Shown one piece after another: positions 1,112-50,132 of a stretch of DNA of 64,000 bases. Position numbers and translations under genes: made by a program. Within the stretch, counting starts at the first letter, position 1. Every line of letters begins with the position of its first letter. Source of the DNA: a virus (taxonomy: Duplodnaviria > Caudoviricetes); IMG/VR virus record IMGVR_UViG_3300005330_000014, positions 1 through 64,000 of that record, one strand, 5' to 3'. Below the pieces are notes generated by a model. It was not told the origin of the DNA, did no database searches, and saw only the letters and a program-made list of their open reading frames with translations.

Positions 1112-4100
1112 CTATTCTCCTGAATCTCCACCCTGATTATTAGGTGCTTTAGGTGGCAAAGCTTTAACAGGTTCGCCTTTCTTACTAGCTTCCTCTAGTG
1201 CAGCTACGCGCGCCTTTATATTTTCATTGGCTTTGGCTATTTCTTCATCAACAATGGATTTAATTTTATCATTATTCACATTAATCGTGCCATTAATTTG
1301 AACATTAATTTTTTGGTCAACGGTAATCGCTTCTCCCTGATTTTTATCTCCAGCTTTTTTAGCCTGAGACTCTGCAAAGGCTATTAATTTATCAGCAGCT
1401 TGACTTAATTTGTCGGCATTATTACCTGCAAAACTACCTGATTGAATTGTATCATTATATCGCTTATCGTTTCCTCTACGGTTTCTTCTATAAAAATCTT
1501 CATTTTCGTCAGCATTTCTAGCACGTAACGGAATACGATCTAATCCACCTGATCCCTGAATTGAAACATTTTTCAAACTTCCAGTGGATAACAAGCTAGG
1601 CCTTCTATTAATTTGATCCTTGATATCTAAATCTTCATAACCTGCTCCTCCTTGGAATTGAGAAGCAAATATTCTATTTCTTTGCAAGGTGGTATTATTA
1701 CCAAAAATAGATTGCCCTACATCAAAATTTCTTTTATTATTTTTATTATTTTGAAAAGTATCAATAGTTTTTTTGAAGTAATCGCTAACGCCACTAGGAA
1801 TTTGTGGCAAAGTAGGAACATAATTAGGTTTTGGCTGAAAAATATTAGAAGAAGGAGGCAAAGAATATGAATCGCTATTTATTGCAGGGTGAGGTAATTT
1901 TGAAATATCTACTAATTGATCAAATTTTTTCTGATATTTTTCCCCCAAAGTTGTAGGATATAAATTAGCAATATTTGGTGATTTATATTGATAAAACGAT
2001 TTGGGTAATTTAAATGGATCAGGGATTTCTCCATCAGCTTTATTGGCAATTAATTTATCAGAAATTTCTTTATCTTGATTTAAACATTTCTTAATTCCAG
2101 ATATGCCTTGAGTTTTATAAGCTTTGATAATTTTATCAAAATCGTCTTTAAAAACTAATTCTTCGCCATATCTTAAAGCTTTTTCTGGGATTTTTCCTAC
2201 GTCAATATTAGGGATTTCTCCATCCGCGTAGCTATTAATACCAAAAGCTTGTTTCATCTTTCGATTTAATACGGCATCCTTACCCGTTCCCGCAAAGTTT
2301 TTTACAATAGATTCACCAGTATTTACTACCGCTGGGCCAATACCAGTTACATTAGTTAAATAGGGTTTGTCGCTAGGAATTGCCCCGCCAACCCCCCGGA
2401 AAATATCTTGTTTTTCCTTATGTAATGAATTTAATAATCCCTTACTGTAAGTTGGCAATAATCCAGATGAATTAGTTCCCAACGAATTCAATTCGTCCTG
2501 TATTTTTTGGATTTTACTTTCTAATTCTTTAACGGAATCTGTAATTGTTCCATGCTCAGGACCATGTAAATTATCTATTTGCTTATTGAGTTGACCGGCT
2601 TGCTTTTTAGCTATCAGTCTCTGATTATCACTAGCTTTAGATAAATCCGGTGAAAACCCATTCAAATGGAATCGACCCTCCAAGGAAGATGCTAAATATT
2701 GCTGGGTAGTTAATTTATTTCTAATATCTCTGTCTGGAATAGTTGAAGATAATTCAGATAAGAAATCTGCCGGTTTATAGTTTTCTTGCGTTCTATATTT
2801 TTCCCCTAAATCGGTAAATTGTTCAACTAATTTAGGAGATATTTGTAGGGCGGAAGCAGTTTTCCCAATATCTAATTTTCTACCAAATACGCTTCTACTT
2901 GGGCCATTAGCATTGATTTTATCAATTGAATTTTGATCTAAGGTATCTTTTTCTAATAATCCTTGTTTGCGTTTCTCGTATTGAGCTTTTTGACTATTCA
3001 AATCAACAATTTTATCACTTAAGGATTGCTCTTTGTCTCCTTGTTTGAGTAATTTGGCAACGGAGGATAAATCAGAGAGAGCTTTCGCCGCCTCTTCCGA
3101 AGAGTCAATTAATTGCTTGAAATCGCCCTTAACTCCTTCATTAAAACTCTGAGAGAGATTGGTTAATTGAGAATTTAGTTCTTTGAATACACCATCTGGC
3201 CCGAGTTCATTTTCTAGACCTCGACGAGTTCCTTGTAACTGACCCTTTAAATCTGAAGGTAAATTTGATTTACTCAATAAACTATTAACTTTCTCTAATC
3301 TTTCTTCGAGTCCTTGCCGAGTTTTATCGTCCAAAGGAACTTGTTTTAGCGCACGTAAGTCAGCTATTTCTTTGACTTTATCAGGAGAAAAACTTCTTAA
3401 TTGATCGACTAATCCTAAATCGCCAGTATTGCGCCCGGACTTAATTAATTGATTAAGCTTTGTTTGAATTGTAGATTGTTCAGCTTTAGAAACAATTCCA
3501 CGAGTTTCATTAATTAATTGCGGATTGCCATCAAATAATCCAGCTTGGAATGCCTGTAACCGGCCTGATCCTAAAGTGGAATATACTCTAGAGCGCCGCG
3601 CCGTTTCTGCATCAGTATCTATCGGACGCCCACGGAAGAAATCATCAAAAGAATTATCTCGACTTTTATATAATCTACTATCGAAAGGATTTGTTAAGAC
3701 GTTTCTAATCGCGCGCCCTTGACCTAATCCTGCTCCAATTTTACTAAAATCTAAATTAGCAGTGTTTTCAAAGTTACCGCCACCGAGAAAGTTAGTTTTT
3801 TTATTTAAAGAAATATTTAATTCATTTAATCTATTTGTATTGTCTTGTAAAGCCTTACGTTGAGCCGCCCGTTCTTGCTCCAACTGGATAGGAATCGTAA
3901 TCTTATTATTGACAACATCTTGTATGCTTTGAGCTACTTTTCCATTTTCTTTACTGTCTGGGCCACCCAATTCTTTGATATATTTACCTAAATTAGCTAC
4001 AATAGTATTAGCAATATCCGATGGATTATCCCCTGCGCTCAAAGATTTAAGAATAATTTGATTCGTTCTTCCTTTGAATTTCTCTGAACGTCCAAATATA

Positions 4101-7100
4101 CCACCTCCCTCTGCTGGTTGATCCGATTCAAAAACTTTAAACGCTTTTTGAACAATCTCGGGTAAATCTTTAATACTATCAGCGAAATCGACGCTAATTT
4201 TATTAATATTATTTATTCTATCATTTTCTAATTCAAATTGTTTGATTCTATTTTCTTGGCGATTTCTGGATTCTGGAGATAGAAACTCTCCAATTGAACT
4301 TAATGATTGTTGAGCGCCTGTGATAGCTTGTGTCCGCGCACCCTGCGTTTTAATGTCAGCCACTCCTAATCTAAATGAAGTAGCTTGGGTTAATCTATCT
4401 AAAGTTCGCTGAATTGATAATAAAGAAGATGTATAAGTTTTTAAGCTTTGAGTTTCTTTTTCAATTGCCGCCGCTGATTGAGCCCGGCCAATAACATTTT
4501 TGATAATAGCTTCTTGTTCCACTGAAGCTAATTTCTTGAATTTATCAAGTGATTGATTATCAATATTTAATTTACCTAAAACTTTTTGTAGTCCGCCCAA
4601 ACTAACATCTCCGCTGGCAGATAAATCTTGTAATCCAGCGAGTTGTTTCTTTCTTTTGTTTTCATCTAAACTAAGAGGTAACGCGTTAGAAATAAATCCC
4701 CCAACATCATTCCGTTGTTCATTAGTTAATAAAACATTGCGTTTGTCTTGACTTAATAAGTTCCTATTTTTAGTAAATACTTCTTCCAGAATACCCTGTA
4801 AACCTTTTTGAGAAGTTGCTTTAATTTGCTGGGCAGCTAAATCTTGTAAAATGTCACTTTTTTGATCTGCCGTACTCGCGCCAATAAATCTATTTCTAAT
4901 TTTAGGATCGTCAATATTCTTAATTAAATCTTGAATCTGGTTGGATACGCGACTGATTTCTGATTTTGATCCGCCCGCTTCAATAATATCTTTAAGCTGT
5001 TCTTGGGCTTGAATTGCTCCTCCAACATTATTTCTATTCTGTTCAAATCTGCCCTTAGTATCTTCGATTTCTTTAGAATAATCTTCTAATGATTTGCGAC
5101 TAGCATTAACAATTCCAACAAATGCAGTTAATGAACCAATTGCCCCACCTGCTGCTAGTCCAACCGGACTAAAACCTAATACTGAAGCTGTACTTAATCC
5201 AGCCCCCAATCCCTCTCCAACTGCATTAAACTTCCGCGCGCCTACGCTACTTTGTGGAGCTAAAGAAGTCAATGTATTAGCTAAAATAGGAAGTGCTAAA
5301 GAGGCTCCAATACCTAACCCTGCCGCCCTTTGTCTACGTCTATCGGCTAGGGATATTGAAATATCATTTGTTCTCGACTTTAAGTTAAATTGGTGTTCCT
5401 CATCTAAATCTTTGAATGTTGATGATCCAAACAAACCGGACTGCAACTTATTAATTCTACTACCCCCGCGAAACAATCCATCTTTTTGCGCAGCACTATT
5501 AGCAAATTGATCTAATAGATGTTGTGCTGTTTCCGCCTGCTTTGCTGCGCGCTCCGCCGCTAATCTTGCTTTAGTTTCATTATCTAATTGAGTATAATAA
5601 CCTTGTTTTAATGAACCTCTATTTTGTCTAATTTGTAAATCAGCAATTTTCTCCAATCCAACCCCCTGAGAGGCTGTAATTGTTCTAGGGTCCAAATTCA
5701 GAGCATGAATTATAGTATTTTTAAGCGTTTGTTTTAATTGGTCTTTAGGCAATGCTAAATCTTGTTCACTAATTTTAGCATTCTTAATATAACCTAAAAT
5801 AACTTTTCTAACTAGATTTTCTCCACCTTCACTTCCAAAAGTTCCTAATTGCCCCGCTGTGAATCCCGGGTCAGCATAGTTAGGAATTAATCCATCTGCT
5901 ACCCCATAAGTTTTAGGATTTAATCCTTGTCTTTTCGCGCGGCTAATACCTTGATTAATTCCGCCGGGTTCGTCCCGCGTATTAGTTACCGCCAATCCTT
6001 GAGGATTTAATGAATCAATTAACTCGGCGGACTTCTCTATTTTGATTTGACTATAAGGAATCCCGGCGGAATGTTCGCGATTTACCGCACTACCTAATGA
6101 ACCACCTAATAACTCAGCAAGTAATTTAGCTTTTGAACCAACACTGGCACCTGATTTTAGTAAACTATGAGATAGGTTATTGTAGTTTGGGGTATAACCA
6201 GAAGCTAAGTTTAAAGGTCGATGTTCTATATCTGCCTTGGCTGCTTTTCTAGCTTCACTAGCAGTTTCAGCTTGAACTTGGAAGAGTCTTTTATTAGTTT
6301 TAACTAAGTAATATCCACTAGAATTAGTTCCAACTTTATTACGCTGAACATATTCTATTTTTTCTTTCCCACTTGGAACATATCCTTTAGCAAATCCTCC
6401 GTTATTATCAATTAAAGCTTGTGCGGCGGCGGTTAGAATCTCAGGCCGCGCAAAACTACCACTGGAGCCGGGCTGACCGCCATGCTTATTAGCAGTTTCT
6501 TCCCCTTGACTGAAATTGAATTCAGCAACTCCGCCCCCTTTGATATATCTTCCTAAACCAAGTAATTCGGCGGCTGCTTGCCCGAATTTCTTAATACCAG
6601 TATTACCAGTTTCTAAAACATCCAACCCCGCGACTCCGCCCGCCCGAATATTGGCAGGCAATGAATTGAATGCTCTTAACCCTTGTTTATTTGCAATATA
6701 TCTACTTAAGATATTTTCAAAACCTTCGCGGCTAAATAACTTATCTTTTTTGACGGCCCCGCCGATAAACTCATGATTCAACCGAGCAATTCCGTCATCG
6801 CCCGTTTGTGAGCGCAACAATGCCCCGCCCACGAGTCTTGAACGATTCCCAACCCCGGCGGCTGTAACTCTAAATTCTCTATTAGATATATTCTCAATAC
6901 CTTTTTGCAAATAGAAATCATCTTTTTTAGCTAGAATTTCATTAAGATAATAAGGAGCGACGCGACTATCGTAAACACTATCGCCCTGCGCGCCCTCTTT
7001 TCCTTTAATAAAGAAGTTATTTCCAAATTGTTTTCTTATTAAATCAAGTAATCTTCCTTGGTTTTTGCCGGTCGTTCTATTTTGTTTTAAGAATCCTTTT

Positions 7101-44947: not shown

Positions 44948-45010
44948 GTACAAAACAAAAGCCGCGCAACCTAGCTAGTTAGCAGTTATGCTGTAGCATA
45001 GGCGCGCGGC
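44948..45010 (-). terminator. Terminator ending the 45.0-47.8 kb operon (hairpin + 9 nt + GTAC)
   Basis: GCCGCGC/GCGCGGC stem, TTTTGTTTT, GTAC. Confidence 0.7.
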
Positions 45011-45024
45011 TCTTAGTTAGTTAA

Positions 45025-45393
45025 TTACTCTCCGCTGATTACAGCTTGGCAACCGTCAGCGAACGCTTGCGCATATCGCGTGTCATGTTTGCGGTTATGC
45101 TCAATATAACGCTTGGCTTTATTCACCATTGCGTTGCGTTCATCCGCTAGCCTTGCTATCAGTAGTAATTCATCCCTCGCCGCTAGCGAACTTTTTTCTC
45201 CGTATTCGACCGCATGTATCAGCACGACGCTTTCCCATGTTGGCGTACAATCAATACTCCCCACTGGTGTCTTATTCTCCGCTTGTTGCGCTCTAAACGC
45301 GTCTACTTGCTCGCCCTTGCCTTGCCAGTGTTTGCGTTGGCGTTCGTTTCCCTTGTTGGATTGTTTGATTAGGTCAGTCTGCTTTTGTTTCAT
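45025..45393 (-). CDS. Hypothetical protein
   Basis: Preceded by (AACT)n leader. Confidence 0.65.
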   Translation of the reverse strand: MKQKQTDLIKQSNKGNERQRKHWQGKGEQVDAFRAQQAENKTPVGSIDCTPTWESVVLIHAVEYGEKSSLAARDELLLIARLADERNAMVNKAKRYIEHNRKHDTRYAQAFADGCQAVISGE

Positions 45394-45411
45394 AGGTAAT
45401 AGGTTAGTTAG

Positions 45412-45561
45412 TTAGTTGTTAAGGAGTTGAATGATTGAGTTGATAGGTTGCGCGTGGGAATAGATGGCAAGCTTAAGCTCGCGACCAATGCCAGCGATGA
45501 AGAAAGCCGCGCGACTAGGGCGGCGAATGATGCACACGAGATGGAGGGCGATGTTTCGCAT
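45412..45561 (-). CDS. Small hypothetical protein (MRNIALHLVC...)
   Basis: ATG adjacent to upstream stop; C-terminal part of the tracked 45412-45678 ORF. Confidence 0.4.
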   Translation of the reverse strand: MRNIALHLVCIIRRPSRAAFFIAGIGRELKLAIYSHAQPINSIIQLLNN

Positions 45562-45562
45562 A

Positions 45563-45835
45563 CTAGCCTTTCTTCGCTTGCTGTGCGCACCGATACGCTG
45601 GCGTATGGTGGGGCCAAGCTTCATGTCCGCTAAGGGTAAGGCGGAAATGAGACAACGCATATACAGCCATAGGGCCACAAGCTGACAGTCCGCCTTGCGC
45701 GTTTATCCATCCTTCTGCATAGCCTATATAATACGCCATTTCTACGGGGGACAATTCCCCGTTAGCGTTGTATTTAGGTTGCTCAATTATCTCTGTCAGC
45801 TTTGCTAGCAGTACTTGATACGGTGTTTTTGGCAT
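45563..45835 (-). CDS. Hypothetical protein
   Basis: (AACT)n leader. Confidence 0.6.
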   Translation of the reverse strand: MPKTPYQVLLAKLTEIIEQPKYNANGELSPVEMAYYIGYAEGWINAQGGLSACGPMAVYALSHFRLTLSGHEAWPHHTPAYRCAQQAKKG

Positions 45836-45919
45836 ATGATTGAATTAGTTAGTTAGTTGATTAGTGAGGCTAGGCAAACGGATGGAACGTCACGCTTTAG
45901 CGGCTTTAGCCATTATGGG

Positions 45920-46474
45920 TTACACACACTCTTCAGGGTCAATCTCTGTTAGTCCCTCAGTGTCCACGCTAGGCGCATCGCCCGCACTGCTAGCGCCATT
46001 TCCGCCCTCCCCTGCTAGCTTGTTGAGATTTTGACCGTTGAGCCAATAAACGTTATTCACGTCCTTGGTTAGCATGCCGCTATCGCGCAAAGCGAGTACC
46101 TTGCCTATCTGCTCCTCACGCGTGAGGCCGTTGATACCAAGCGCAATTTCCTTTGCCGGGGTGAACGTCCTAAACGTCCCATAACGCGCGTTAAAGGCTG
46201 CTTCGTTCGCTCCCCGCGTAGGCTGCATTACTGGCGATGATGCGCGCGCTACGCTAGCCATGTCGCTCACTTGTCGCACGCTAGCCGCAATGCGTTGCGG
46301 ATTCACTCCCGCTGCAACAAGCCCATCATATATCTCCAGAGCGTGTTTCACGTCACCTGCCACTAGCATAATTGCAAAGCTAATTGGCGCGTTAATTGGC
46401 GTTTCACGCGGCTCGATAGTTTCCGCTTGCGCGGCTTTTGCCGCTTTCTTCTTTTGAGTCGTTTTCTTTTTCAT
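45920..46474 (-). CDS. Hypothetical protein with basic N-tail, RuvA-domain-III-like segment and acidic C-tail
   Basis: LVAAGVNPQRIAASVRQV resembles RuvA C-terminal [18 protein letters not shown] (by eye). Confidence 0.55.
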   Translation of the reverse strand: MKKKTTQKKKAAKAAQAETIEPRETPINAPISFAIMLVAGDVKHALEIYDGLVAAGVNPQRIAASVRQVSDMASVARASSPVMQPTRGANEAAFNARYGTFRTFTPAKEIALGINGLTREEQIGKVLALRDSGMLTKDVNNVYWLNGQNLNKLAGEGGNGASSAGDAPSVDTEGLTEIDPEECV

Positions 46475-46483
46475 CGAAATTGA

Positions 46484-46711
46484 TTAGTTAAGGGTTTCCA
46501 TTTGATTTGCCCATTTCCAGAAAACACTTTGTTTCGCCTTGTCGTTTGTGGCGTCAATTTCCTTGTCGCGGGTTATGTAACCCTGCCAGTAAGAAATTGT
46601 TGAATGAATTAGACGCGAACGAGAAACGGGAGAATCTGCCAATTGCAAAATAGCCGTTTGTGTGTCGCGGAATTGATCATCTAGCTTTGCTTTGATTTCC
46701 AAGGTAGTCAT
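46484..46711 (-). CDS. Hypothetical protein
   Basis: (AACT)n leader; operonic. Confidence 0.6.
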   Translation of the reverse strand: MTTLEIKAKLDDQFRDTQTAILQLADSPVSRSRLIHSTISYWQGYITRDKEIDATNDKAKQSVFWKWANQMETLN

Positions 46712-46794
46712 ATACTTATACTCAGTTAATTAGTTAGTTAGTTAAATTGACGGGAAAGGGGACGGATGGAACGTCTAACCTTGCCCTTTGTTAA

Positions 46795-47772
46795 TTACTT
46801 GCGCGCGGCTTTCGCGGCTTTTTGCTTGGTCGCAATCATTTCCATATAATCCGCCCCCCCTTTGGCAAGCTGCCATCCTCCGCGCACAGGTTCTACCATT
46901 CCTTCGCTCGCGAGCCAGTTAACGCGGTCAAGCGTGCTCTTTTTCTTTTCGTCGCGTACTTTGAAGCGGAGAACATCTGCCGTAACGTGTTTCTCTTTTA
47001 CGATAGTGTTGAGGATCGTAATGTCTTCCCTCCGCAATCCCTTGGGGAAAAATCCCTTTGACCTAAGCAATTCCGTTACGTCGTCGCCTTTCAGTTTGCG
47101 AATGTCTTTCGCCTTCGCGCGATTGACGATAGGTCCAACTACTTCCTCCAAATCCCCCGGGAATGGCTTAACGCGGTCAAGTAACGCGTTCATGCCATCC
47201 TCCGTAAGCGCAACATCCTCACGGGCCAGAAATAGCTCGGCAATTTTCTCCATCTCGTTGCGCTTGTAAGCGCCAGTGATGAAGGAGCGACAACGGCGTT
47301 GCATCGCCTTATCGAGTGGCATGTTGCTGGCGAAAATATGAATATGATTTGTTGGGTCGAAATGGAAACAGTTTCCTTGCTTCCAAATCGTATGAGCCTC
47401 CGTTACTTGCGTCGTCAGTGCTTTAATCAAATCCAGTCCCTGCTTTTGCGCGTGGAATTCATCCCACAGAATTACGTAGGGGATTGCGCTCACTTGTTGC
47501 GTGTCAGGGTCAAACGACGCGATTTTATTCGCCATTTGATACAACTCCTTCATGCCAGCGTTTGGGGGCACTTCGTGATAATTGAATCCGAAATTGACCA
47601 ATTGCTCGGCCAACGCACGGGCGAGATTGCTTTTCCCCGTTCCTGTGTAGCCTCCCAAAAAGATTGGACGCCATTTGTACACCTCATTTTTCTTTGCGCT
47701 ATTGGCATGCGCCAAAAGCATTTCATTCAATTCCCCGACAATTTCAGTCTGTCCGATATACTTAGTAATCAT
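46795..47772 (-). CDS. RuvB-like AAA+ ATPase
   Basis: Walker A GYTGTGKS; Walker B ILWDEFH; sensor/arginine finger (ASN...MQRRC); GLRREDITIL and C-terminal winged helix as in RuvB. Confidence 0.8.
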   Translation of the reverse strand: MITKYIGQTEIVGELNEMLLAHANSAKKNEVYKWRPIFLGGYTGTGKSNLARALAEQLVNFGFNYHEVPPNAGMKELYQMANKIASFDPDTQQVSAIPYVILWDEFHAQKQGLDLIKALTTQVTEAHTIWKQGNCFHFDPTNHIHIFASNMPLDKAMQRRCRSFITGAYKRNEMEKIAELFLAREDVALTEDGMNALLDRVKPFPGDLEEVVGPIVNRAKAKDIRKLKGDDVTELLRSKGFFPKGLRREDITILNTIVKEKHVTADVLRFKVRDEKKKSTLDRVNWLASEGMVEPVRGGWQLAKGGADYMEMIATKQKAAKAARK

Positions 47773-47804
47773 AATCAGTTTTCTAGTTAGTTAGTTAATT
47801 TGTT

Positions 47805-48141
47805 TCCTCTGCATTTGCTTATCAGCTTTCCCGCCTTGGAACGGTTTAGAGTCTAGCGGATATGCCAGATTGTCTAAGGTGCATTAAACCGGCAAATCGC
47901 TTGTCTTGAATCGGCATCGTAATGGATGCCTAAACGACTAAGGTTTGCCAACGATGCCAGCGTGACTGTGAGGCTAATACTCGCCAGTCCTAACGTGCCC
48001 ATGCTGTCCAATCGTATCTAGTCGGCAATTCCCGCGTTTCGCAACGCGTTCTCTGCTCTGCATTCTCTCTCTTTATCCGCGCCGAGCACTGAGTTTGTGT
48101 CCTCTCGGCATCCCCATTTCCACACTGCATAGAGAGAATAA
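47805..48141 (-). ncRNA. Candidate ~340-nt structured RNA upstream of the RuvB-like gene
   Basis: At least seven 6-9 bp helices incl. CGCGTT-GCGA-AACGCG GNRA hairpin and crossing helices; GC-rich; no ORF of 60 aa or more. Confidence 0.5.
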
Positions 48142-48576
48142 CCCGTACCCATATAAGGAGCAACATTTAAATACTTAATTTCAGTCAATTTTTAAAATAA
48201 TTCCGCGCGGCAATGTGATGATTGGCATAAAACTTGTTTTCGATTGTTTTGTTTAATCGAAAGTTTGGCACGCTTCTTTTCTATAATCTTTAGAAAATCT
48301 TTAAATAAGTCAAATAAGTCAATTTAATTAATTAGTTATTTACTTTAGCCAATCTAATCAACCCTGCCAAATAATCAATATCCCTAGATAATCAATACGT
48401 CTTAACTATTTAGTTTACTTAAGTTAATAGTTAACCTATCTGAAGTATCCGCCGCGTAGCCGCGCGGCCAAATTGCCGGGTGCCCCTTATTACGTTCCTC
48501 ATACGTTCAAACGGAGGGTCTGTTTTCGCCGCTAGGCATTATTAAGAGTTTAATTGTTTAAAACTGAGGGCCAGCC

Positions 48577-48611
48577 GTACAGCAAGAATGCCGCCCATAT
48601 TAAAGAGCGGC
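48577..48611 (-). terminator. Terminator-like hairpin + 9 nt + GTAC
   Basis: GCCGCTC/GGGCGGC stem, ATTCTTGCT, GTAC. Confidence 0.6.
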
Positions 48612-48644
48612 AATCTTGAAAAGTGAGATTTATTATTTAGTTAC

Positions 48645-49721: not shown

Positions 49722-50132
49722 TTACTTCGCGGGCGTCAAAACAGCCTTTGCCGTCTTCACGTTTTTCTTTGCGACGGGCTTCGCGGCCTTTGCCTTCGAC
49801 TCCGCCGCCTTCTTTGGCTTGTTCGTGCTGCCGACGGGACGACCCGACTTCGCGGCTGCCATCTTGATGCCGCTCTCGATAGGGTACGGGATTTTCGCGT
49901 TGCCCTTGGAAGGCTCCTCGGTGAGAAACACGCGAACGAATTCCTTGCCACCCTTGTGCGTTTCATGCCGCGCGGACACGGTTGCATCCATTTGCTTCGC
50001 TCCCGTGTGAGCCATCGCGTAAATATTCGCGATTTTCTGACCGTTCACGGGAACGACGAACGATTGACCCTTCCGCATAAGGCGGAGCGTGGCGGAGATG
50101 CTGAACTTGTTTTTATTGGAGTTGTTTTTCAT
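49722..50132 (-). CDS. Basic DNA-binding protein with AT-hook and Lys/Ala-rich tail
   Basis: GRPVGSTNKPK AT-hook-like motif; N-terminal MRKGQSFVVP...VRVF small beta domain; GC-rich codons. Confidence 0.7.
   Translation of the reverse strand: MKNNSNKNKFSISATLRLMRKGQSFVVPVNGQKIANIYAMAHTGAKQMDATVSARHETHKGGKEFVRVFLTEEPSKGNAKIPYPIESGIKMAAAKSGRPVGSTNKPKKAAESKAKAAKPVAKKNVKTAKAVLTPAK

Follow-up and report, generated by a model that had tools for sequence, protein, structure and literature searches.

A strongly diverged RuvB-family protein and its conserved small neighbour, a putative non-RuvA adaptor, in an uncultured phage

RuvB is the bacterial motor for branch migration of Holliday junctions and depends on RuvA for this function. 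Branch migration is also carried out by T4 UvsW and bacterial RecG, helicases of superfamily 2 (SF2) that are used together with UvsX and endonuclease VII, and short acidic tails that act as tethers are found at the C-terminal tip of SSB and in T7 gp2.5 and gp4. Here we describe a locus in the genome of an uncultured phage (IMG/VR record IMGVR_UViG_3300005330_000014) where a gene for a RuvB-like AAA+ ATPase of 325 amino acids (aa), the motor, lies upstream of a gene for a 184-aa protein, the partner. The record is 208,233 bp long with an estimated completeness of 95%, and the window, that is the whole stretch of DNA analysed, constitutes its first 64 kb. With moderate confidence we read the locus as encoding a RuvB-type ring translocase of double-stranded DNA (dsDNA) with a dedicated adaptor that is not RuvA. 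The coordinates of all features are collected in Table 1.

The product of the motor gene is a strongly diverged, full-length protein of the RuvB family. Like bacterial RuvB (1hqc, 7pbl, 8efy) it has a large AAA+ domain with a presensor-1 beta-hairpin, a lid and a winged-helix head (residues 243-302, approximately), and its motifs include GTGKS (Walker A), WDEFH (Walker B), FASN (sensor 1), a conserved RR pair at 159/160, the arginine finger, the GL..D start of the head and the P-x-R-G wing of the latter. The AlphaFold2 (AF2) model has a mean predicted local distance difference test score (pLDDT) of 91 and a predicted template modelling score (pTM) of 0.78. When this model was searched against PDB with Foldseek, about the first 40 ranks were all RuvB (best E 1.1e-16, TM 0.77, 323 columns), and the earliest match to another protein was RFC with an E-value of 4e-10. 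VIA, which is independent of Foldseek, aligned Thermus thermophilus RuvB (1hqc) with a Z of 22.6 and a root-mean-square deviation (rmsd) of 2.6 A over 286 residues across positions 1-314, followed by RFC (Z 15.5) and Cdc6/Orc1 (Z 12.9, rmsd 8.6). Residues 243-325 match winged helices of the MarR type (VIA Z 12.7, rmsd 1.5), and RFC aligns to residues 1-239 only. A hhalign comparison of the motor family with E. coli RuvB gave a probability of 92% and an E-value of 5e-7 over 271 columns that reach into the head domain. In the model a beta-hairpin (127-131/134-138) is predicted between the Walker B strand 99-104 and the sensor-1 strand 143-149, and in the motor alignment G133 of the hairpin is invariant and R131 nearly so. 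A presensor-1 hairpin insert is the defining mark of the RuvB clade, and is also the place where domain III of RuvA docks in the RuvAB complex (PMC9477746). The full RuvB architecture that the initial annotation had read from the motifs was thus recovered in the model and in the full-length fold match, the C-terminal winged helix included.

At the level of sequence the motor differs considerably from bacterial RuvB, with an identity of about 16%. Pfam assigns it to AAA with 22 bits, PHROGs to PHROG 168, 'clamp loader', with an E-value of 3.7e-7, and a sequence and profile search of PDB returned ClpC D2, RFC and Msp1, with RuvB at E 0.2. NCBIfam RuvB (TIGR00635/PRK00080) is the top match for the window motor and for two of its homologues (in L004 and G001, described below), via different parts of the proteins and in all cases far under the cut-off; the window motor scores 21 bits against PRK00080, where the cut-off is 282. 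The Pfam models RuvB_N and RuvB_C match neither the motor nor anything else in the 208-kb record at E <= 10, while control genomes do match. As the RuvB models of both Pfam and NCBIfam reject the motor, it should be regarded as a remote member of the RuvB family and not as a RuvB orthologue. The gene is present in one copy in the 208-kb genome. No match to Pfam RuvA_N, RuvA_C or RuvC was found in the whole record at E <= 10 (RuvA_C in six frames), again with control genomes that match, so that the lack of RuvA OB/HhH domains and of RuvC noted earlier for the window holds for the entire record. The protein is accordingly, as judged by Pfam, a stand-alone RuvB-type motor encoded by a phage without ruvA and ruvC, and it is paired with an unrelated small protein.

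Homologues of the motor are few. Eleven were found at 44-55% identity among 5.8 billion protein clusters, all of them unnamed and metagenomic, and a profile with two distant members included gave six further ones. In the 12 sequences of the window's clade K47, D104, E105, N150, R159 and R160 are invariant, and so are the C-terminal domain's G-L-R, D-x-K and P-x-R-x-G. With the two most distant members included (alignment A6), G44, G46, K47, D104, E105, N150 and R160 are still invariant, and R159, R247, D274, K276 and R297 are not. The motor of G001 (L078, 847-2097), which has an N-terminal extension of about 100 residues, keeps the RuvB-like sensor-2 string RGTAR and links the window's clade to canonical RuvB.

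The 184-aa partner founds a previously undescribed family that, by sequence, has at least 20 members. It has no Pfam, PHROG or NCBIfam assignment, and PADLOC gave no match to a defence system beyond generic P-loop hits. A word-indexed search found one homologue, and 20 proteins at E <= 0.001 came out of a profile search that covered 1.84 billion representatives; the family set used here consists of 19 sequences and the G001 copy. The window protein has a basic tail (1-30), a strand and a helix (31-57), a variable linker, the motif VARxASP (75-81), a domain of three helices and a hairpin (89-153), and a disordered acidic tail with EIDPEECV as its last residues. Its net charge is +5 in the N-terminal 25 residues and -7 in the C-terminal 25, in agreement with the basic N-tail and acidic C-tail previously described for it. 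The family as a whole follows the same plan. First come a hydrophobic stretch that looks strand-like and an amphipathic helix with Gly-[VI] at its end, then a linker of variable length, the conserved motif [VI]-A-R-x-A-S-P, a domain in which an R-E pair is invariant, and finally an acidic tail. The last 25 residues have a net charge of -3 to -11 and the tail ends with [EI]-D-x-[DE]-x-x-[VF] (EIDxDExV), and a basic N-terminal tail is present in five members including that of the window. By analogy, the partner shares with SSB and the T7 gp2.5/gp4 tails a disordered acidic tail with a short conserved hydrophobic tip, but it has no OB fold and no homology to these proteins.

The AF2 model of the partner has a pLDDT of 79, with residues 89-153, the three helices and the hairpin, at 91-97. 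No fold search reached significance (all Foldseek matches at E > 1, all VIA matches at Z < 3). Winged-helix proteins make up the weak neighbours, among them SelB, members of the MarR/ArsR types and the corresponding domains of Rpa2, Cdc6 and ORC2, and those in the ESM Atlas are likewise of this kind, at a TM of about 0.3. We call residues 89-153 a probable winged-helix domain.

The two genes are found together in related sequences. In all four contexts that could be read the partner gene is located downstream of the motor gene, in the same order (the window, L003, L004 and G001). In the metagenome contig L003 the motor gene (3565-4743) is followed after 88 nt by a gene for a partner homologue of 157 aa, and in L004 the motor gene (472-1425, product 32% identical) is followed after 72 nt by one for a homologue of 121 aa. 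G001, 167.7 kb, is the closest related complete phage, with a terminase 65% identical to that of the window phage (G000). It encodes a motor of 416 aa with an identity of about 22% (profile match E 1.4e-8), and 25 nt further on a partner of 139 aa (partner-profile E 1.3e-33). In both of these phages some 16 kb separate the pair from the terminase gene, which is on the same strand, and the flanking genes are shared. Motor and partner sequences P0007 and P0019 (8538 bp) and P0010 and P0018 (3471 bp) are matched in contig size and source, which suggests two more contigs shared by motor and partner. A lack of co-occurrence in relatives would have contradicted the initial annotation; the neighbourhoods in L003, L004 and G001 have both genes. 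Neither gene was found in ten more distant terminase relatives, the records of which are just 20-45% complete. In the relatives the motor gene is followed directly by the partner gene, after 25-88 nt, and the 75-aa open reading frame (ORF) that separates the two in the window is therefore probably a lineage-specific insertion. The position of the basic tail varies, being at the N-terminus of the partner in the window and in the 8538-bp contig and at the N-terminus of the motor in L003 and G001. Such tails on differing subunits fit a shared DNA-bound assembly, in a small sample.

The locus had no megablast match among deposited phages, and neither family was found when motor and partner were compared by tblastn with 50,697 deposited phage genomes, so the pair appears to be confined to the same small set of uncultured phages. 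Scans of viral contigs with the partner, with alignment A1 and with P0037 had no return, nor had a scan of genome contigs with A1. In BFVD no viral protein equals bacterial RuvB as a match to the motor; the best one is an unnamed protein of 684 aa (E 3.5e-12), and the other matches are clamp loaders and other AAA+ proteins. When canonical E. coli RuvB was compared with the phage records by tblastn, most matches were genes with an identity of about 60-70%, several of them located on records that are short or lack annotation, and these may be bacterial DNA instead of phage genes. Nothing relevant was found in the literature on phage RuvB homologues. The sole return of a viral-contig scan with the window motor was an unrelated AAA + vWA pair in the IMG/VR contig L002 (4293-7793), with a 483-aa AAA+ protein followed by one of 679 aa, by sequence a MoxR/CobS-like ATPase and a vWA/CobT-like protein.

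The analysis shows the fold of the motor and its catalytic motifs, a new family of partners, a conserved gene adjacency and the compositional island described below; ring formation, DNA translocation, contact between motor and partner, and the substrate are what we infer. The motor would hydrolyse ATP and most likely form a hexameric ring around dsDNA, which it would translocate by means of its winged-helix heads in a RuvB-like manner. The 184-aa protein is probably the adaptor of this motor; its motifs and acidic tail would tether it to the ring, and its putative winged-helix domain would pick the DNA or protein target. The variable basic tails, on one or the other subunit, may add to the targeting, and a protein with an AT-hook and an H1-like tail encoded upstream may join the same machine.

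Several observations weigh against this proposal. The sensor-2 GTPR of RuvB is replaced by KPFPGD in the window's clade, where the GTPR arginine aligns to G206. Four arginines in the head of RuvB bind DNA (PMC9477746), and of the corresponding positions only one or two are basic, in the window's clade K276 and R297; the head does retain K276 and a wing with P-x-R-G-G, and the motor has a short extra basic C-terminal tail of Lys and Ala (KAAKAA) that distinguishes it from bacterial RuvB. The winged-helix call for the partner rests on weak matches, and the physical contact between the two proteins is one that we infer. The partner of L003 is closest to that of G001, whereas its motor is closest to the motor of the window, and a mirror-tree analysis of six motor/partner pairs showed no significant co-divergence (Spearman 0.33). 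Finally, about 110 kb lie between the motor gene and the cluster of genes for the UvsX-like recombinase, the DnaB-like helicase and the exonuclease, a distance that speaks against a routine role of the motor in recombination.

That the lineages of motor and partner are shuffled relative to each other could also mean that the two are co-regulated without forming a complex, the partner being a DNA-binding winged-helix regulator or a DNA mimic that has a target of its own and the motor working alone or with the RuvA of the host. The ORF inserted between the genes in the window points the same way, and stand-alone regulators with a winged helix and an acidic tail are common. This explanation has difficulty with an adjacency and gene order that are kept in all readable contexts while the motors diverge down to about 22% identity, and with the apparent restriction of both families to the same uncultured phages, and we consider it rather unlikely. 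A role as loader or initiator, clamp-loader-like or Orc1/Cdc6-like, with the partner as cofactor at an origin or a primer junction, is very unlikely in our judgement. The PHROG 168 match would agree with it, as would RFC and gamma subunits as the second-best folds (Z 14-15.5), weak holA/delta matches on the partner, and Cdc6/Orc1, which also combines AAA+ and a winged helix (Z 12.9). RuvB scores better than all of them, by 7 in Z and by 6 orders of magnitude in E-value, and has an rmsd of 2.6 A over 286 residues against 4-9 A, the C-terminal domain of the motor is a winged helix and no clamp-loader collar, and the delta matches are below any threshold and fall on a generic helix-Gly-Pro pattern. 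The motor also lacks the domain order of the clamp loaders proper (gamma/RFC/gp44), as a winged helix stands where the helical collar would follow the AAA+ module, and RFC covers residues 1-239 only.

The initial annotation had proposed that a 25-residue segment of the partner resembles domain III of RuvA (PF07499, a UBA-like bundle of three helices). If so, residues 45-69 or thereabouts would dock on a presensor-1 hairpin, either that of the phage motor or that of host RuvB, and regulate the ATPase cycle. Aligned locally to E. coli RuvA, the partner family does score best in domain III (164-190), with L52 on L167, G56 on G171 and P59 on P174, and the hairpin used for docking by that domain in RuvAB is retained in the motor (PMC9477746). 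The match itself is at the level of chance. In comparisons that used the Pfam RuvA_C model and E. coli RuvA, BLASTP aligned 19 residues with an E-value of 0.20 in a single comparison (range over the alignments 0.15-0.20), and the Smith-Waterman score of the segment against RuvA 156-203 was 35, where shuffled sequences gave 25.6 +/- 4.4 and 4% of them reached 35, as did 9 other ORFs among the 245 in this genome that have 100 aa or more. hhalign chose the same spot with a probability of 0.4%, and RuvA_C had no match on the partner at E <= 1. A search of PDB sequences with the family profile found no RuvA chain and gave weak summed matches to PPR repeats on the pattern A-L-x5-L-x3-G-V-x-P; domain III of the DNA polymerase III delta subunit matches at a similar, insignificant level. 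As these matches fall on one helix-Gly-x-x-Pro pattern, this is a generic helix-turn signature. No RuvA chain was listed in the fold searches of the partner either, an absence that by itself is no proof.

The structure of the segment leads to the same conclusion. Its first half is the end of the conserved amphipathic helix with the glycine, and its second half is a lineage-specific linker. For residues 31-70 the AF2 model predicts a strand, one helix (42-54) and a turn of three residues, and not the three-helix bundle of a UBA or RuvA domain III. The half that aligns to helix 2 of RuvA (NPQRIAASVRQV) is not conserved in the family, and 14 of the 19 members scored have a spacer of 5-14 residues from the conserved glycine to the VAR motif, which leaves too little room for helices 2 and 3 of such a bundle. 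What the partner shares with the RuvA domain is thus just a short string of helix, glycine and hydrophobic-x-Pro in a region that is otherwise unconserved, and the RuvA OB/HhH domains are absent. The identity of the segment as a RuvA-domain-III-like module is not supported, and docking by such a module is highly improbable. Of the earlier reading, the motor without RuvA and RuvC and its conserved partner neighbour stand, and the docking module, with its chance-level similarity, does not. The partner may nevertheless, like domain III, act as a small tethered module beside a RuvB-type motor, and a different mode of docking on the same presensor-1 hairpin is possible.

As for the substrate of the proposed translocase with a non-RuvA adaptor, the guess that we prefer is phage DNA, branched or coated with protein, that would be remodelled. 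The genome encodes a number of enzymes of DNA metabolism. An endonuclease VII-like gene is located at 132-1109 of the window on the plus strand, and genes for a UvsX-like recombinase, a DnaB-like helicase and an exonuclease are located outside the window at about 158-167 kb (158084-159268, 160638-162074, 165173-166651). Together these four point to a T4-style toolkit for recombination and replication, separate from the RuvB-like operon. The phage also codes for ribonucleotide reductase and NAD-salvage enzymes. Branched recombination intermediates are a plausible substrate because the phage has the UvsX-like and endonuclease VII-like proteins, and by analogy with UvsW and RecG a branch-migration motor would fit such a pathway. 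Those two are SF2 helicases, whereas the phage motor is an AAA+ protein and its gene is outside the replication and recombination cluster. Given this distance, the distinct composition of the operon and the DNA-architectural appearance of its neighbours, displacement of proteins or handling of the incoming genome remain live options.

Table 1. Features of the RuvB-like operon and its surroundings in the window.
Feature	Position	Strand	Basis or remarks
RuvB-like AAA+ ATPase (motor), 325 aa	46795..47772	(-)	ORF, motifs, AF2 model, fold and profile matches
Partner protein, 184 aa	45920..46474	(-)	Second gene downstream of the motor gene; family alignment, AF2 model
Segment of 25 residues initially read as RuvA-domain-III-like, partner residues 45-69	46268..46342	(-)	Alignments, AF2 model
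ORF between motor and partner genes, 75 aa	46484..46711	(-)	No Pfam or PHROG match
AT-hook/H1-like protein, 136 aa	49722..50132	(-)	Homologues in L003 (173-733) and G001 (L079 7576-8115)
ORF-free leader, ~870 nt	47773..48644	(-)	From a terminator-like hairpin at 48612-48589 (then TGTAC) to the ATG of the motor gene
GC-rich island	45001..48000		The only stretch of the 208-kb genome where the 1-kb GC content reaches 0.45

The large terminase and structural genes occupy the minus strand at 1-36 kb, followed by a block of small ORFs on the plus strand (37-44.7 kb) and, from 45 kb on, by the minus-strand block that holds the RuvB-like operon. The 136-aa protein encoded upstream of the motor gene has an N-terminal globular domain, an AT-hook-like core with GRP and a Lys/Ala-rich tail that is H1-like. 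Homologous genes are located 1.8-2.8 kb upstream of the motor gene in L003 and G001, so that a gene of this type precedes the motor in all three contexts with enough upstream sequence (the window, L003 and G001), and its product is a candidate for a third member of the module. The leader of the motor gene is AT-rich from 48460 to 48180 and then GC-rich from 48180 to 47800, and a promoter scan showed no enrichment compared with shuffled sequences.

The operon lies in an island of elevated GC content, and the elevation extends more weakly over 44-52 kb. The GC content at third codon positions (GC3) is 0.43-0.57 for the island genes, about double that of other phage genes; the motor gene has 0.57 and the partner gene 0.54, and the AT-hook gene at 49722-50132 has 0.74, compared with 0.23-0.33 for the genes for terminase, UvsX, DnaB and ribonucleotide reductase. 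In G001 the motor and partner genes have a GC content of 52% and 50.5% against 38.6% locally, and in L003 49% and 57% against 43.7%, a weaker excess. The cassette may have been replaced from phages richer in GC, or an operon that is expressed early may be under selection for its codon usage or its DNA properties. A more far-reaching idea, which we hold to be quite improbable, is that the GC-rich operon encodes a phage-specific machine for DNA remodelling, with the RuvB-derived translocase, the non-RuvA adaptor and the AT-hook/H1-like binder, that is expressed first on an incoming AT-rich genome. Such a machine would clear away nucleoid or silencing proteins of the host or help to draw the DNA in, and the operon would then owe its odd base composition to having to be expressed while the remaining genome is not yet competent.

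Two short repeats were also observed in this part of the genome. One, TAACTAACTAA, is a period-4 repeat with TAA in all three frames that is located in the window between 44926 and 63310, in 10 copies that are all on the minus strand, where 0.13 would be expected. Examples, on the minus strand, are found at 47787-47797, 46730-46744, 45845-45855 and 45404-45414, and in the four cases that were read the repeat is 10-30 nt upstream of the ATG of a gene, and no Shine-Dalgarno sequence can be seen there. In this gene block it may serve as a signal that combines a stop in all frames with an unstructured leader. The other is an exact 13-mer, ACGTTCCATCCGT, present on the minus strand at 45878-45890 and 46762-46774 in hairpin-like sequence, one copy just past the stop codon of the partner gene and one just past that of the RuvB-like gene, as candidate terminators or processing sites.

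A RuvB-type ring motor that works with an adaptor unrelated to RuvA would, if this reading is true, show how an AAA+ DNA translocase gets re-targeted, and the phage pair would then offer a compact system of two proteins where the recruitment and regulation of such motors can be studied.

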